This document shows positions 15,933 to 22,457 of a stretch of DNA of 64,000 nucleotides, in pieces (the first letter of the stretch is position 1; the number at the start of each line of letters is the position of its first letter). The notes beneath the pieces were generated by a model. The model was not told the DNA's origin. It did no database searches and saw only the letters and a list, made by a program, of their open reading frames with translations. This DNA is from Polaribacter sp. (GTDB taxonomy: Bacteria > Bacteroidota > Bacteroidia > Flavobacteriales > Flavobacteriaceae), in the NCBI GenBank assembly GCA_029250685.1, contig JAQXEU010000025.1, positions 23,536 through 87,535 on the forward strand. Direction: 5' to 3'. Made by a program: the position numbers and the translations under genes.

Positions 15933-17402
15933 TTAGTTAGCAAACCATTTTTTAACCAATTCTTTTTCTATTGATTGATGTGATTTGTGTTTGTAATCAT
16001 TATTTATAGCGTCGTAATCGTAATCATTTTTCCATTCTTCAACGTTTTCGCAAACTGCTTTTAAGCTTTCACAAATAAAATCTACTTCTGCATCTTTTAT
16101 TGTTGGGTGAATAGACAAACGAACCCAACCTGGTTTTTCAACCGAACAACCTTCAATGATTTGTTTTTCTATTGCTTTAGATGTTTGTTGATCTACATTT
16201 AATAAGAAATGCCCATACGTTCCTGCACAAGAACAACCTCCACGAGTTTGGATTCCGAAACGATCATTTAACAACTTTACAATTAAATTAAAATGTACAT
16301 TATCAACATAAAAAGAAAAAATTCCTAATCTGCTTTTATGATTCGGCGCTAAAATATTTACATTCGGAATTGCTTCTAAACACGTAAATAATTTTGCATT
16401 GATTTCTTCTTCTCTATCATGAATTTTATCAGTTCCCATTTTATCTTTCAACTGAACACATAATGCAATTTTTATAGTTTGCATAAAAGCTGGTGTTCCA
16501 CCATCTTCTCTAGTTTCAACATCATCAAAATAATCACGATCTCCCCAAGGATTCGTATAACTTACAGTTCCTCCTCCAGGATTATCTGGAACCGTATTTT
16601 TATATAATTTCTTATTGAAAATCAACACACCTGAAGTTACTGGTCCACCCAAGAATTTGTGTGGAGAAAAGAAAATTGCATCTAAATATGCGTCTTCATC
16701 TTCTGGATGCATATCTATATCTACATAAGGAGCAGAACAGGCAAAATCAACAAAACACAAACCATTACTAGCATGGATCATTTTTGCAATTTCGTGGTAT
16801 TTTGTTTTAATTCCGGTTACATTAGATCCAGCAGTTATAGAAGCAATTTTTAACATTCTATCATCATATTTCTCTAACAACTTCCCAAAACTTTTTAAAC
16901 AAATCAATCCAACTTCATCACAAGGAATGACTTCTACATCAGCAATAGTTTCTAACCAAGACGTTTGATTTGAATGATGCTCCATATGAGAAACAAAAAC
17001 AATCGGTTTCATTTCATCCGGAACGTTTGTATGCTCTTTTAAAGCATCACAAATTTTTAATCCTAAAATTCGTTGAAATTTATTTACAACACCCGTCATT
17101 CCAGAGCCTTCAGTAATTAAAACATCATCTGAACTTGCGTTTACATGACGTTTAATAATGTTTCTAGCCTCATGATACGCCAATGTCATTGCAGCACCGC
17201 TTGTAGACGTTTCGGTATGCGTATTGGCTACAAAAGGGCCAAAGTCATTGATTAATGTTTCTTCAATTGGTCTGTACAATCTTCCGCTAGCGGTCCAATC
17301 TGTATAAATTAAGTTTTGAGTTCCATAGGGCGATTCAAAAGTTTGATCTATACCTACAATGTGTTCTCTAAATTGACTGAAATATTGTTCTAATGATTCC
17401 AT
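15933..17402 (-). CDS. Aminotransferase class V / cysteine desulfurase-like PLP enzyme
   Basis: YTDWTASGR, EHHSN, FSPHKFLGG (PLP Lys), EDGGTP, RGGCSCAG. Confidence 0.85.
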   Translation of the reverse strand: MESLEQYFSQFREHIVGIDQTFESPYGTQNLIYTDWTASGRLYRPIEETLINDFGPFVANTHTETSTSGAAMTLAYHEARNIIKRHVNASSDDVLITEGSGMTGVVNKFQRILGLKICDALKEHTNVPDEMKPIVFVSHMEHHSNQTSWLETIADVEVIPCDEVGLICLKSFGKLLEKYDDRMLKIASITAGSNVTGIKTKYHEIAKMIHASNGLCFVDFACSAPYVDIDMHPEDEDAYLDAIFFSPHKFLGGPVTSGVLIFNKKLYKNTVPDNPGGGTVSYTNPWGDRDYFDDVETREDGGTPAFMQTIKIALCVQLKDKMGTDKIHDREEEINAKLFTCLEAIPNVNILAPNHKSRLGIFSFYVDNVHFNLIVKLLNDRFGIQTRGGCSCAGTYGHFLLNVDQQTSKAIEKQIIEGCSVEKPGWVRLSIHPTIKDAEVDFICESLKAVCENVEEWKNDYDYDAINNDYKHKSHQSIEKELVKKWFAN

Positions 17403-17413
17403 TTTATTCTGAA

Positions 17414-18265
17414 TTAAAATAATCTAAATCTACCCCCAAACACAATCGTATTTTCTAGAAAAGAAAAACTTTGAGATGCAGAATCTTTAGTGCTTTTTGT
17501 TGTTCTAATATCTGACATATTTATATAACCTACTTTTACATCAGATTGTATAAAAAAATGTTTTAAGAAAGTAATGTTTACTCCTACACTTGCTGAGATT
17601 CCCCAACCAGCAATATGAAAATCATCATATCTTTCTTTATTTAATAATTTTGTGTTTGATTTTGGAAATAAAAATCCTGCTCCTAATCCTTCTGTTAAAT
17701 TTATCTGTAAATTTTTAGAATTCAACCCAATTAAATGACTAAAATCATCAAACCGTTTTACCTCAACATTGATATAGTTCAAACCATCTGTGTGCTCAAA
17801 AGTTAAAAAATTTTCAGTTAATTTAATAATCTCATTCGCATATACTTTGTCAAATGAAGATCCTGTATTAATAGCTCCGTTAATCATTACATTTTGATCT
17901 GCATTCATCACATATTTCATGTGATCTACTCCTATTGAAACGGTGTAGTTTTCTTTAAAAAAATAGCCAATACGATAATTTGTTTGCGGAATTGTAATTC
18001 TGTCTAGCTTAAAATATGGATCTAAACCAAATTTTGTTGGACGGTCATTCGCGGTTACACCAGATAAGGTGAAATCATAGTTTGTTCCTTTAAAACGGAT
18101 ATCTGAATTAGAATACGTTCCCCTATTCCATCCCCAATATGCATAGAATTTTCCTTTGTTGTTTTGTTGATATTGATCTTTTTGTTGAGCATACGATGAA
18201 AATATGCTTAACAGCATAAAAATCGATACAAACTGTATTTTGATACTTTTATTAGGCGATAACAT
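17414..18265 (-). CDS. Uncharacterised outer-membrane beta-barrel-like protein
   Basis: Signal peptide, amphipathic aromatic-rich strands, C-terminal Phe; overlaps the glmM stop by 14 nt. Confidence 0.6.
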   Translation of the reverse strand: MLSPNKSIKIQFVSIFMLLSIFSSYAQQKDQYQQNNKGKFYAYWGWNRGTYSNSDIRFKGTNYDFTLSGVTANDRPTKFGLDPYFKLDRITIPQTNYRIGYFFKENYTVSIGVDHMKYVMNADQNVMINGAINTGSSFDKVYANEIIKLTENFLTFEHTDGLNYINVEVKRFDDFSHLIGLNSKNLQINLTEGLGAGFLFPKSNTKLLNKERYDDFHIAGWGISASVGVNITFLKHFFIQSDVKVGYINMSDIRTTKSTKDSASQSFSFLENTIVFGGRFRLF

Positions 18266-19667
18266 CTTCTATTTCTTTTATAAATCGTTTTGCTAAATTA
18301 TCTGCATTCTCTTGCGAATTACTCTCTGTGTAAATTCTAATAATTGGTTCTGTATTCGATTTACGTAGATGAACCCATTCATCAGCAAAATCAATTTTTA
18401 CACCATCAATGATATTTACATTTTCATTTTTGTACTTAGAAGCCATAGTTTCTAATACTTCATCAACATTAATTTGTGGCGTTAATTGAATTTTATTTTT
18501 ACTCATAAAGTAACTTGGATACGAATCTCTAAGCTCTTTACAAGACATTTTTTGATTAGCTAAATGCGATAAGAACAACGCAACGCCCACCAATGAATCT
18601 CTTCCGTAATGAGAAGCTGGATAAATAATTCCACCATTTCCTTCTCCACCAATAACCGTATTGGTTTCTTTCATTTTTATCACCACATTTACTTCTCCAA
18701 CTGCAGAAGCAGTATAGGTTCCGCCATGTTTTTCTGTAACATCACGTAATGCTCTAGAAGATGACAAGTTAGAAACGGTATTTCCGCCACCTAAACGTCC
18801 TAAAACATAATCTGCACACGCAACCAATGTATATTCTTCTCCAAACATAGAACCGTCTTCAGAAATCAATGCCAATCTATCTACATCTGGATCAACCACA
18901 ATTCCTAAGTCTGCTTTTTCTTTTACTACCAATTCAGAAATATCTGTTAAGTGTTCTTTTAAAGGTTCTGGATTGTGTGGAAATTCTCCGTTTGGTTCAC
19001 AGTATAGTTCAACACATTCCACATGTAGTTCTTTTAACAACGCAGGAATAAAGATTCCGCCAGTAGAATTTACACCATCAACAACCACTTTAAAATTGGC
19101 GTTCTTGATGGCTTCAACATCTACCAATTCTAAGTTCAACACTTCTTGAATGTGTTTTTGTAAGTAACTTTTATCTTTTGAATAACTTCCTAAATCATCA
19201 ACCTCAGCAAAATTAAAATCATCTGCTTCCGCTTTCGCTAAAATGATTTCTCCTTCTGCTCCATTTAAGAATTCTCCTTTTTCGTTTAATAACTTTAAGG
19301 CGTTCCATTGTTTTGGATTGTGAGAAGCTGTTAAGATAATTCCACCTTGTGCTTTTTCTAACGGAACAGCAACCTCAACAGTTGGCGTGGTAGACAATCC
19401 TAAATCGATTACATCAATTCCTAAACCAACCAACGTATTAGCAACCAAACTAGAAATCATTTTACCAGAAATACGAGCATCTCTACCAATTACAACTTTT
19501 ACTTTTTTCTCTTGTGCTGAACTTGATTCAGCATCTAAATTATTTCTTTCTAAAATAAAAGTACCATAGGCTGCAGCAAATTTTACTGCATCAATGGGTG
19601 TTAAATTATCGGCTGTTTTTCCTCCAATAGTTCCTCGTATTCCTGAAATAGATTTTATTAATGTCAT
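18252..19667 (-). CDS. glmM: Phosphoglucosamine mutase
   Basis: SISGIRG, GRDAR, TASHNP (phospho-Ser), DPDVDR, GEGNGG, RKSNTEP; TATCTTTG promoter at 19718-19711. Confidence 0.9.
   Translation of the reverse strand: MTLIKSISGIRGTIGGKTADNLTPIDAVKFAAAYGTFILERNNLDAESSSAQEKKVKVVIGRDARISGKMISSLVANTLVGLGIDVIDLGLSTTPTVEVAVPLEKAQGGIILTASHNPKQWNALKLLNEKGEFLNGAEGEIILAKAEADDFNFAEVDDLGSYSKDKSYLQKHIQEVLNLELVDVEAIKNANFKVVVDGVNSTGGIFIPALLKELHVECVELYCEPNGEFPHNPEPLKEHLTDISELVVKEKADLGIVVDPDVDRLALISEDGSMFGEEYTLVACADYVLGRLGGGNTVSNLSSSRALRDVTEKHGGTYTASAVGEVNVVIKMKETNTVIGGEGNGGIIYPASHYGRDSLVGVALFLSHLANQKMSCKELRDSYPSYFMSKNKIQLTPQINVDEVLETMASKYKNENVNIIDGVKIDFADEWVHLRKSNTEPIIRIYTESNSQENADNLAKRFIKEIEDVIA
19511..19536. 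repeat. REP-like palindrome family A, inside the glmM CDS
   Basis: CTTG-TGCTGAA-CTTGA-TTCAGCA-TCT; matches intergenic copies at 19680, 21138 and 21244. Confidence 0.85.
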
Positions 19668-19679
19668 TGTCTTTTTCTT

Positions 19680-19704
19680 TTGTACTGAACTTGTTTCAGT
19701 ATCT
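19680..19704. repeat. REP-like palindrome family A, glmM 5' UTR
   Basis: TTG-TACTGAA-CTTGT-TTCAGTA-TCT. Confidence 0.85.
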
Positions 19705-19834
19705 GCTGAACAAAGATAAATTATTTGCTGAAATGTTGATACAACTTTAGCCTAAATAAAATTTAGTGTTTTTATAAAAATCAATTTGTAGTATTAACAA
19801 AAATACTACACATTTGAAACAACCAACCAAACCT

Positions 19835-21022
19835 ATGATGATTAAAAAAGCACTATTATATTGCTTGTTGTTTACAAGCGTTTTCTGTTTTTCTCAAGAA
19901 ACCAAATTCAAAGAATATTCATATACAGAAGTATTTGATATGATTGCAGCAGAAAAAGACACCCTTTTTAAACTCAGCAATGCTTTTGTTAGATACAATA
20001 CAAAAACCGATAGCTTATTTACTGCTGAGGTTAATGATAACGATGATATTCTTACTGGAGGAAGAAAAAAACAATTAGTTATTGAAAAAGAATTAGCATT
20101 TAACAATGTTCATTTTTTCTCTAAGTCAAATTTTGAGTTACCAACTAGAGGTGGTGTTATGAACAACATCCTTTTTAAAAAGAAAGTGAGTTTTACAACA
20201 GTACTTTCTGCCACTTTTTTGAATTGTGTTTTCGAAGAAGAGTTGAGAAATAACACACAAGAAGAAATTGAAGATGCATTAAAAGAAGCTGTATATAGAT
20301 TTAAAAGATTTTGAAACCAAAAGATTAGAATATCTCTACGATGCTAATCCTTCTTTTGACACCTTTTTTCAATGGAAAGTAAACCAGTTTTTAAAACTGT
20401 TTTCTAACTACGGTACCAAACCTTCTAAAGCAATAACCTTTTCTGTGTATGTTATTTTATTATTCGCCTTGTTTTATCTGTTCTTTCCTAATTCTTGGGA
20501 CAGGCATGGTAGAAACAGAATTTTAGACCGATACAGTTTCTTTTTAAAATACATGAACAAACAAGCTGGAATTCATGAAGAGTATTTAGCAGGTCAACAA
20601 GAAGAATTAATGGATTATGATGAATACAGAAAACTCATAGAAACTTCCCATAAAAAAGTTCCCAAGTTTTTTACTTCTACTGCCATGCCAATTTATAAAT
20701 GGGCTATTTCTGGAACCAAATTATCCGCAGGGTTTTTAAAGCGAATTGATATTATGAAAGGTACGTGGAGCGATTTACCTCAGCACAAACGCCTTTGGAA
20801 ATCTACGTTGCTAATTAGTGCATTCTTAATCGCTATTTTGTATGATGTCTTTATCAAAGTTTTGAATGCTATTATGTTATCCATCAACACTTTTACCTCC
20901 TTAGGTTTTGGGAAATCCCTATAAAAGGATTGCCTAGATATCTAGCAATTATACAAGGTTTTATTGGTTGGTTTATGCTGACTATTTTCTCTGTTTCTTT
21001 AATCTCTCAATTATTGAATTAG
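19835..21022 (+). pseudogene. Frameshifted ion-channel (potassium-channel pore, Ion_trans_2-like) domain gene
   Basis: Signal peptide; frame change near 20281 (DALK|KLYIDLKDFETKRL) and near 20911 (SINTFTSLGFG|EIPIKGLPRYLAIIQGFIGWF); T-x-L-G-F-G pore-like motif followed by a TM helix. Confidence 0.75.
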
Positions 21023-21117
21023 TTGCAAAGGCTCAAAGCGGTAAAGAGAAAAGGCTAAAGTTTAATTCCTGTAAGACAACCTGCCCTCTTTTAATTTTTG
21101 TAAGAATACAAATGATA

Positions 21118-21554
21118 TATAACGGCTAAGTGTCCAAAGCCTGTCCTCAACTTGATTGGGGAACTAAATAATAAAGTCTGGACACGATAGTGGAATATTA
21201 TGTAGTATTCAAAAAAATTAAAAGCAGGCTAGAATTTTGTTGAAGCCTGTGCTGAACTTGATTCAGTATTCTTCGATGGAAAAGAAAAAAGAATTAAATA
21301 TTACAGCTTACAATCTTGATTTAGCCCCGTTTATAAAAAAAAGACTAACAAAGGAAGAACAATATGGATTCCCATTTCCATGTGAATGACAGAAAGGAAT
21401 TTGATTATGAGTTTTCTTGTCATTTCGAGAACTACTGAAATCAAAATGTATTTTGATAGAAATTATATAGCGAAGTAATGGAAACGAAACCGAGAAATCT
21501 TTACTTTTATAATGAGAGGTTTTTATTTAGGTCTCGACTGCGCTCGACCGGACA
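21118..21554. repeat. Cluster of several REP-like palindromes / nested hairpins, possibly a MITE
   Basis: Family A at 21138-21162 and 21244-21270; family B at 21363-21392; GTCATTTCGAG...CGAGAAATCT at 21419-21500; GGTCTCGACTGCGCTCGACCGGACA at 21530-21554. Confidence 0.75.
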
Positions 21555-21560
21555 AAAAAC

Positions 21561-22457
21561 TTACTTCATATACTCATAAACCGATTTAGAAATTTGTGCT
21601 AATTGATCTGTTCCCTTATCAAAGTCTTTTAGGTTTTTAGAAAGCAATACCAACACATATTTTTTTCCGTTTGGATGAAATACAATTGCTGCATCATGAT
21701 GCACACCAGTTATTGAACCTGTTTTATGTGCAACCTCGACTCCTTTTGGTAAATACTTCGGAATCATATCATTCCATTTTTGATCTTTTAAAATGTCAAT
21801 CATTTTATCAGAATCTTCTTTGGTTCCAGCTTTACCAGTTGCAATGGCTTTCATAATCATTAATAAATCATTTGCTGTTGTAGAATTGCTCAATCCTTTT
21901 CTAAAGGCTTTAATATCTTCTACGCCACGCAACACTTCTATTTTATCAGCTCCTAACGTTCGCATAGTTGCTGTAGTTTTCTTAGCATCAACAACTTCAA
22001 TTAAAACATTTGTTGCCAAATTGCTACTTAGAATAATCATGCTGTACATTAAATCGTACATTTTTTGTTGCGTTCCGATTTTACTATAAATAACATCATC
22101 ACTATCTACGCCAATATCCATTTTATAACTACTTCCGTCTACAATACTTTTAAACTCGTTTTTAAGCAGTATAGAATCGTTTAAATTTAGTTTTCCTTCA
22201 GATTGTTGTTTGTACAATTCAATCATCACAGGAACCTTCATGGTACTTGCAGCATGAAACTGTTCATCTGTATTAATCAAAACCTGATTACTACTATCAG
22301 ACAAATCAAAAAAAGCAACTGCAACATCTCCTTCAATCTTTGAAATCTGATTTTCTATCGAAGTTTTTAATGTGTCAATTGATTTTGAATTGTCATCACA
22401 AGAAATTGCAGCAAAAAAAAGTATACTTAAAAATATAGGTTTAATAAATTTAGCCAT
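21561..22457 (-). CDS. Serine hydrolase, class A beta-lactamase-like lipoprotein
   Basis: Lipobox AISC, SxxK (ASTMK), SSN, HKTG. Confidence 0.85.
   Translation of the reverse strand: MAKFIKPIFLSILFFAAISCDDNSKSIDTLKTSIENQISKIEGDVAVAFFDLSDSSNQVLINTDEQFHAASTMKVPVMIELYKQQSEGKLNLNDSILLKNEFKSIVDGSSYKMDIGVDSDDVIYSKIGTQQKMYDLMYSMIILSSNLATNVLIEVVDAKKTTATMRTLGADKIEVLRGVEDIKAFRKGLSNSTTANDLLMIMKAIATGKAGTKEDSDKMIDILKDQKWNDMIPKYLPKGVEVAHKTGSITGVHHDAAIVFHPNGKKYVLVLLSKNLKDFDKGTDQLAQISKSVYEYMK

Follow-up and report, generated by a model that had tools for sequence, protein, structure and literature searches.

A tagged REP-type hairpin within the glmM gene of a marine Polaribacter

How did a palindrome come to lie, in frame, inside an essential gene? 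This question is raised by glmM in a 64,000-nucleotide stretch of Polaribacter sp. DNA (assembly GCA_029250685.1, contig JAQXEU010000025.1, positions 23,536 to 87,535 of the forward strand), which is called the window below. The gene contains the palindrome TGCTGAA-CTTGA-TTCAGCA. We show that this palindrome represents a very short hairpin repeat, tagged and of the repetitive extragenic palindrome (REP) type, whose presence in glmM amounts to a net gain of 24 nt. Note that a first-pass annotation, made from the sequence alone, had already given the position, the frame and the minus-strand peptide exactly. The peptide reads L-D-A-E-S-S-S-A-Q-E and is flanked by YGTFILERNN and KKVKVVIGRD. It had also proposed that a REP-like palindrome entered a tolerant loop in frame. 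That proposal is supported, both by orthologues that do not have the segment and by a hairpin matching the architecture of CGTC-tagged REPs.

The in-frame insertion in glmM

The palindrome is the core of a 24-nt insertion. The features at the site are as follows.

18252-19667, minus strand: glmM, an archaeal-type phosphoglucosamine mutase of 471 amino acids with intact catalytic motifs (TIGR03990 score, match to 1wqa).
19515-19533, no strand assigned: perfect 7-bp palindrome with a 5-nt loop (pattern scan and RNA fold).
19512-19535, minus strand: 24-nt in-frame insertion GATGCTGAATCAAGTTCAGCACAA, encoding D45-A-E-S-S-S-A-Q52 (codon alignment with the empty orthologues L001, L002, L003, L005 and L006; gap relative to 1wqa).
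19511-19537, plus strand: proposed mobile unit, with the tag CTTGT (19511-19515) followed by the 22-nt GCTGAACTTGATTCAGCATCTA (19516-19537); its extent is suggested by the L082/L001 pair and by the nested and Flavo-1 contexts described below.

The glmM product scores 526.9 bits against the NCBIfam model TIGR03990 (Arch_GlmM), for which the curated cutoff is 439, and is thus a member of that family. The motifs TASHNP, DPDVDR, GEGNGG and RKSNTEP are invariant in our GlmM alignment (A1). The closest solved structure is a phospho-sugar mutase from P. horikoshii (PDB 1wqa, E = 3e-76), and the nearest homologues are other Polaribacter GlmM proteins, with 84-92% identity.

With up to two mismatches allowed, the palindrome occurs three times in the window, compared with 0.41 occurrences expected; none of 100 shuffled sequences reached three. 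The core, CTGAANNNGNTTCAG, has 10 strand-matches where 1.22 are expected. The repeat unit spans about 22 nt and reads RCTGAA-CTTGW-TTCAGY-ATCTN, with YTTGT or CCTGT ahead of it on that strand. As RNA, the copy in the coding sequence (CDS) folds modestly (-8.6 kcal/mol). The exact window allele, including both the CDS hairpin and a second one in the glmM 5' untranslated region (UTR), was recovered from seawater or marine metagenomes in 18 or more independent runs, dated 2015-2025. Hence, it is no assembly artefact. In metatranscriptome runs, one 218-nt contig crosses the insert ungapped; this is weak evidence, since DNA carry-over is possible. The tryptic peptide across the insert is NNLDAESSSAQEK.

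Two sets of orthologues were compared. The distance from SGIRG to GRDAR was measured in 80 species-representative genomes of Flavobacteriaceae and relatives (Flavobacteriia), and loop length was compared in the 120 best Polaribacter GlmM homologues. The distance is 53 residues in the window protein. It is 44-45 residues in 72 of the 80 genomes, 46-50 in eight, where the extra residues are unrelated and non-palindromic, and 53 in none. Among the Polaribacter homologues, 93 are 463 amino acids long and all but nine of the 120 have a short loop (typically ...RN-x-NKEKITVV...). In the remaining long proteins, the extra length comes from N-terminal extensions. Since most orthologues have the short loop (72/80 genomes and about 110/120 Polaribacter proteins), the insert is derived. 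The first-pass annotation had suggested this alignment, with the same loop in orthologues from genomes without the repeat family as the outcome that would speak against insertion; the relatives mostly have the shorter loop. Its estimate of a loop 9-10 residues longer than in homologues needs correction, as the codon alignment with empty orthologues gives eight.

Nor is the insert a private event in this strain. Nine other GlmMs of the 120 bear 6-8 additional residues at the same site, with xE[ST][SG]S[AG]Q-like sequences. All eight DNAs read, belonging to seven of those nine proteins and to a TARA contig (L213), contain the same hairpin in the same frame. The hairpin occupies the same codon in L081, L082, L083, L085, L087, L088 and L213 and is offset in L086; in the latter, and in protein P0080, the unit is displaced by about three codons. 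It is perfect in L082, has one mismatch in L081 and L088, and is degenerate in L083, L085 and L087. The cleanest comparison of filled and empty sites is between L082 (...TTTTTTC(CC)TTTGT / GCTGAACCTGTTTCAGCATCTC / TGGGG...) and L001 (...TTTTTTCTTTGT / TAGGG...). The two differ by the 22-nt unit plus 2 nt, which restores the frame.

Where does the additional peptide lie in the protein? In the alignment with 1wqa, the inserted segment has no counterpart; the gap follows the first long helix and precedes the strand leading to GRDAR. An AlphaFold model of GlmM has a helix at residues 24-46, coil at 47-56 and a strand at 57-62, with predicted local distance difference test (pLDDT) values below 50 at residues 48-51. 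With the frame kept, the variable segment that joins helix alpha1 to strand beta2 in domain 1 thus appears to gain eight hydrophilic residues, DAESSSAQ. From the alpha/beta topology, the segment would sit at the N-terminal end of beta2, distant from the catalytic Ser115 cleft, and would be exposed to solvent. Hence, the 'surface loop' described by the first-pass annotation is a prediction, based on a model of medium confidence and on the gap relative to 1wqa. Most likely, the GlmM enzyme is unaffected and the peptide is a passenger.

The alpha1-beta2 loop is a general hotspot of length change. In other genera (L016, L040, L025, L032, L041, L062 and L071) it has differing, non-palindromic extras of 2-6 residues. 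The extra in L016, for example NQEPRIKNQEQK, is made of short AATCAAGA-like repeats.

The hairpin and CGTC-tagged REPs

CGTC-tagged REPs were defined by Di Nocera, De Gregorio and Rocco in 2013 (PMC3733652). They have a CGTC, TGTC or CCTC head, a stem of 8-9 bp opening with AT, a loop of 4-5 nt and a CCA tail (PMC3733652). The elements occur in five phyla, the flavobacterium Gramella forsetii included, and single intragenic copies encode 7-9 amino acids (PMC3733652). In R. conorii, the phosphomannomutase RC0657, of the same enzyme superfamily as GlmM, contains one CGTC-1 REP encoding VIPAKAGI at residues 146-153 (PMC3733652, Additional file 3). That site differs from the one in glmM.

The glmM repeat belongs to, or derives from, this cross-phylum superfamily. 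We searched viral contigs for exact matches to CTGAAWCAAGTTCAG. Among the matches listed, about one third read (A/G)GAT-N-CTGAA-WCAAG-TTCAG-N'-ATGAC, with N and N' covarying; these are in contigs of 31-71% GC and, where GC is high, are often inverted doublets 45-60 nt apart. On the opposite strand they read (C/T)GTC-AT-stem-CTTGW-stem-AT-CC, which matches the architecture of CGTC-tagged REPs (PMC3733652). As a side observation, viral contigs of 60-71% GC (L106, L191, L207, L131, L090 and L200) conserve AT-rich CTGAAACAAGTTCAG hairpins as inverted doublets of the form GTCATGCTGAACTTGTTTCAGCATCCAT..N40..ATGGACCCTGAAACAAGTTCAGGGTGAC. Each hairpin of the doublet is, in frame, a mini open reading frame (ORF), M-D-[AP]-E-T-S-S-[AG]-stop.

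The glmM copy agrees with CGTC-tagged REPs, which include R. conorii RPE-4 and RPE-6 and the Neisseria dRS3, in several respects. The loop has 5 nt; the stem would be of 8 bp if the G.T pair at its base is counted, and the tail (ATC-C/T) is short, both matching in part. The core, CTGAA-CTTGW-TTCAG, is that of the cross-phylum copies flanked by CGTCAT...ATCC. Inverted dimers, nesting in other palindromes, single intragenic copies of 7-9 amino acids and presence in Flavobacteriaceae (Gramella) are also common to both. The loop is CTTGA or CTTGT, as in the CGTCAT-flanked copies from contigs of 31-71% GC.

The head, in contrast, speaks against strict membership. It is CTTGT in the glmM copy, TTTGT in the UTR copy and CCTGT in an intergenic copy at 21250; only a further intergenic copy, at 21145, reads TGTC, across the border of tag and stem. 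By comparison, (C/T)GTCAT is present in the cross-phylum relatives that share this core. The glmM stem has seven perfect pairs plus a G.T at its base (GTGCTGAA/TTCAGCAT), so the first pair is not A-T: the 3' arm ends with AT, while the 5' arm starts with GT. The tails are CTA in glmM, CTG in the UTR and CTC in many metagenome copies, compared with CCA in the canonical REPs of the window. Because YTTGT or CCTGT stands in place of the CGTC head, we refer to the copies as a tag-variant relative.

Other known repeats were also considered. Like Rickettsia palindromic elements (RPEs), the glmM unit is an in-frame palindromic repeat in a housekeeping gene that adds a tolerated peptide. RPE-1, as reported by Ogata et al., is said to span about 100-150 bp, to encode 30-50 amino acids and to be restricted to Rickettsia. 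The glmM unit, of 22-24 nt and eight amino acids in a free-living marine flavobacterium, is not of the RPE-1 type. The likeness to Rickettsia elements drawn by the first-pass annotation holds at the level of the superfamily, which includes R. conorii RPE-4 and RPE-6 (PMC3733652). GTAG REPs, REPINs and their REP-associated tyrosine transposases (RAYTs), together with IS200/IS605 elements, are similar in having a tag 5' of the hairpin, presence/absence polymorphisms and insertion by a 4-5 nt tag. The glmM family differs in that it has no GTAG head, and CGTC REPs have no known transposase link; a crude motif scan found no RAYT in the window. On these features, the copies do not match the GTAG type. 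Finally, the small dispersed repeats of heterocystous cyanobacteria are reportedly 21-27 nt long (Elhai et al. 2008). They resemble the glmM unit in being mobile-looking, of about 22 nt, mutually nested and found inside genes and RNA genes; they differ in sequence and phylum.

The 22-mer occurs in many other settings. A metagenome scan for TGTRCTGAACTTGWTTCAGYAT returned, among the matches listed, more than 120 stretches of 28-55% GC. In the main context within these matches, the 22-mer is nested in a CGTC/TGTC-type hairpin, directly 3' of the outer loop CTTGT. Every non-nested case listed has YTTGT before the unit and an A-rich run after it, in sense orientation. Further sites are the loops of terminator-like hairpins, a position beside a tRNA-Ser gene, and 5'UTRs, where the unit is sense-oriented 15-60 nt upstream of start codons. 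It is also found in the apical loop of a Flavo-1 RNA (RF01705, 48.1 bits compared with 42), within a 72-nt insertion.

Marine Flavo-1 RNAs with an apical-loop insertion of about 72 nt are present at 6129-6283 of L316 (minus strand) and in L228, L261, L283, L307 and L323. The insertion ends in the 22-nt hairpin, whose 3' arm shares nucleotides with AGCACAAGAAAGAU, a strand of the Flavo-1 stem; possibly, the RNA adopts either one fold or the other. The 22-mer is also in frame in a polA-like ORF of L324 (residues ~288-295) and a FecR-like ORF of L236 (residues ~282-289). Four of the six frames of the 22-nt unit are open. The sense frame gives TETSSAQ, as in the polA-like case, and another open frame gives ILNQVQH.

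Repeated insertion, one old insert, and the question of mobility

Was glmM hit once or many times? In a neighbour-joining (NJ) tree built without the loop, the insert-bearers are scattered. Fitch parsimony for presence of the insert needs eight gain or loss steps on the NJ tree, and 8-10 across 30 bootstrap replicates. Over eight insert-bearing genes, identity at third codon positions rises from 0.59 gene-wide to 0.91 (204/224) in the insert; no other 8-codon window reaches this value (0/261, maximum 0.84). In the 10-30 codons flanking the insert it is 0.54-0.58, no higher than in pairs of one insert-bearing and one empty gene. We also considered a recombination patch carrying the insert. This was rejected, the flanks being equally similar between insert-bearers and between bearers and empties.

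The inserts differ from one another just where copies of the repeat family at other sites also vary: by G/A in the outer stem, by T/A and A/G within the loop, and by C/T in the 3' arm. It is therefore improbable that a single old insert simply decayed neutrally. Hence, third-position conservation, ordinary flanks and scattered lineages together favour repeated insertion over decay. We lean, by a modest degree, towards slightly different family members having inserted repeatedly into one A-rich, Asn/Lys-coding hotspot in Polaribacter. Here, the antisense strand would offer YTTGT, for example TTTGT from AAC-AAA. Survivors would be only those insertions that restore the frame, such as the 22 + 2 nt in L082.

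Alternatively, a single ancestral Polaribacter insertion, held under nucleotide-level constraint because the hairpin functions in glmM mRNA or DNA, could have been followed by many precise losses. Palindromes are prone to deletion, all inserts of the main type (type A) share codon position and reading frame, and the insert core is highly conserved, all of which would fit this history. We nevertheless consider it improbable. It demands 8-10 precise in-frame losses, each giving back a 463-amino-acid protein. The pairing is broken in L083, L085 and L087, and thus the stem has not been maintained. Furthermore, the variation consists of standing family variants, not compensatory changes, and the unit is offset by about three codons in L086 and P0080.

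The best overall explanation, and a highly probable one, is that a tagged REP-type hairpin copy of about 22 nt, a relative of CGTC REPs, was inserted in frame in glmM. How the unit moves is a more tentative matter. Single-strand transposition of the IS200/IS605 and REP/RAYT kinds is recognised by a conserved tag 5' of a hairpin and by insertion 3' of that tag, and this motivates a proposal for the mechanism. An IS200/IS605-type HUH tyrosine transposase (TnpA_REP/RAYT-like) might act on the unit in trans and move it as single-stranded DNA; we regard this as conceivable, at somewhat less than even chances. Such an enzyme would insert 3' of a short tag, which would also account for units nested where other copies have a CTTGT loop. 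TnpA_REP subclasses 2.4 and 2.6 are known from Bacteroidetes (PMC6006769).

A bolder possibility, put forward equally tentatively, is that marine Flavobacteriia harbour, in the YTTGT-tagged unit of about 22 nt, a single-strand DNA element that is site-specific, still actively moving and among the smallest known. In at least eight Polaribacter lineages it may have landed independently at one and the same codon of an essential gene, surviving only with the frame restored, and it may also target the CTTGT loop of its relatives, the Flavo-1 apical loop, terminator loops and 5'UTRs.

Several observations weigh against insertion of a mobile, CGTC-related unit. In L006, the nearest relative, YTTGT is missing from the empty sites, and exact boundaries of the insert are ambiguous in the A-rich, low-complexity DNA. 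Metagenome contigs from four runs, which are short unitigs of mixed Polaribacter populations, contained no allele without the 24 nt or the UTR unit over 19200-19900. Hence, these contigs show no presence/absence polymorphism within the species that would point to present-day mobility. A crude scan for RAYT, HUH and Y motifs in the six-frame translation of the 64-kb window found no transposase signature, and the literature gives no transposase for CGTC REPs. The four copies in the window all lie within 1.8 kb (19.5-21.3 kb), and when 600 kb of sequence around glmM, from 88 other loci, was scanned for hairpins, only the L082 glmM insert was found. For the placement in the protein, the AlphaFold model has only medium confidence (mean pLDDT 68.9).

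In-frame REP and RPE insertions are already known, as is the superfamily in Flavobacteriaceae. What the present case adds is that the unit is very small, nests in itself and recurs at one codon in different lineages. In-frame insertion of this kind is one of few bacterial routes to new peptide segments in conserved enzymes, and the glmM case extends it to abundant free-living marine Flavobacteriia. The site is a natural series of filled, decayed and empty states over many lineages. Together with two further 5'UTR presence/absence sites, this series could reveal the target rule of CGTC-type REPs and the mobilising enzyme.

Other copies in the window and their surroundings

The second glmM-associated copy lies in the 5'UTR of the gene, close to a promoter-like motif.

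19684-19705, plus strand: UTR copy, ACTGAA-CTTGT-TTCAGT plus ATCTG, with TTTGT ahead at 19679-19683 (pattern scan, RNA fold, empty orthologues).
19711-19718, minus strand: TAtcTTTG, a putative promoter element inside the conserved TTATCTTTGTTCAGC that agrees with the -7 consensus of Bacteroidetes.

The unit, ACTGAACTTGTTTCAGTATCTG on the plus strand and about 22 nt long, stands between the promoter-like motif and the ATG. Its palindrome, at 19683-19701, is 88% identical to the CDS copy over 33 nt including flanks. The hairpin ends 16 nt upstream of the ATG and folds modestly as RNA (-5.7 kcal/mol). The copy is present in the window and in L213, a close relative with the same synteny and about 89% nucleotide identity; the site is empty in L006, L081, L083, L001 and others. 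In L213, the UTR copy holds an additional unit of 21-22 nt nested in its loop. TTATCTTTGTTCAGC is common to all Polaribacter loci. The Bacteroidetes -7 consensus is TAnnTTTG, and TAtcTTTG may be the -7 box of glmM. If so, the UTR hairpin would begin a few nucleotides from the 5' end of the transcript. Speculatively, the stem-loop might change mRNA stability or translation. The UTR copy offers a test of the effect of the hairpin on expression of an essential cell-wall precursor gene.

Two alternatives for the CDS palindrome turn on this second copy. The first is that the loop simply varies naturally, or that the UTR sequence was duplicated locally, with the palindrome a coincidence. Loop length does vary elsewhere by non-palindromic inserts (L016, L040, L032, L025), and the UTR and CDS copies have flanks in common. 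However, the palindrome is significantly non-random, and the matches listed include more than 120 unrelated metagenome contexts with the identical 22-mer. Furthermore, the CDS copy is present in lineages without the UTR copy and therefore was not derived from it. We thus give this alternative almost no credence.

The second alternative is that the UTR palindrome and that of codons 45-52 are operators for a dimeric, DNA-looping regulator of glmM. A 7-5-7 inverted repeat is typical of sites for helix-turn-helix dimers, and the copies, 88% identical over 33 nt, are 168 bp or about 16 helical turns apart, in helical phase. Against this, the UTR copy is missing from most insert-bearing lineages. 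The same hairpin also occurs in the gap separating convergent genes, in Flavo-1, within other genes and, across phyla, nested in REPs; moreover, its stems covary, a signal of structure or transposition and not of a fixed protein-binding sequence. We conclude that a looping operator pair is very improbable, and rejected it given the lack of the UTR copy in most insert-bearers and the many unrelated contexts of the hairpin.

The first-pass annotation counted three non-coding copies within 2 kb. All three are confirmed, at 19683-19701, 21250-21268 and 21145-21161, although the first belongs to the 5'UTR of glmM itself. The others, and two canonical REPs, are as follows.

21246-21271, plus strand: intergenic copy CCTGT-GCTGAA-CTTGA-TTCAGT-ATTC, with the palindrome at 21250-21268 (pattern scan).
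21140-21164, plus strand: intergenic variant CCTGT-CCTCAA-CTTGA-TTGGGG-AAC, with loop and tag unchanged, an altered, covarying stem and the palindrome at 21145-21161 (pattern scan).
21368-21391, minus strand: canonical TGTC-tagged REP of CGTC-1 type, TGTC-ATTCACAT-GGAA-ATGGGAAT-CCA (architecture as in PMC3733652).
22535-22558, minus strand: canonical TGTC-tagged REP of CGTC-1 type, family D8, TGTC-ATTCCCGT-GAAA-ACGGGAAT-CCA, with a perfect 8-bp stem (repeat scan).

The TGTC-AT...AT-CCA architecture of the window REPs is the one that encodes VIPAKAGI-type peptides in Rickettsia and Sphingomonas. No Rfam family was found over the hairpins, either at the gathering threshold on the whole window or in E-value mode on 19400-21600.

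On the other side of glmM, the 3' end of the gene shares 14 nt (18252-18265) with the start of the downstream ORF, 17414-18265. This ORF and the next gene, an aminotransferase of class V (15933-17402), keep their order in several Polaribacter loci. One 461-residue homologue, P0016, has a very long branch beside the window protein in the NJ tree and deviates in its N-terminal region (DIVKFTSAYGTWLKRKN...); it may come from a chimeric metagenome contig.

The 637-nt gap between convergent ORFs at 20925-21560 is a small cluster of palindromic repeats. It contains the CTTGA-loop hairpins at 21145-21161 and 21250-21268 and the TGTC-tagged REP at 21368-21391, and also a degenerate GTCATTTCGAG...GAAATC unit (~21418-21442) and ggtctcgactgcgctcgacc (~21530-21549). 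A spurious ORF at 21237-21389 reads through one of the hairpin copies (MLKPVLNLIQ...).

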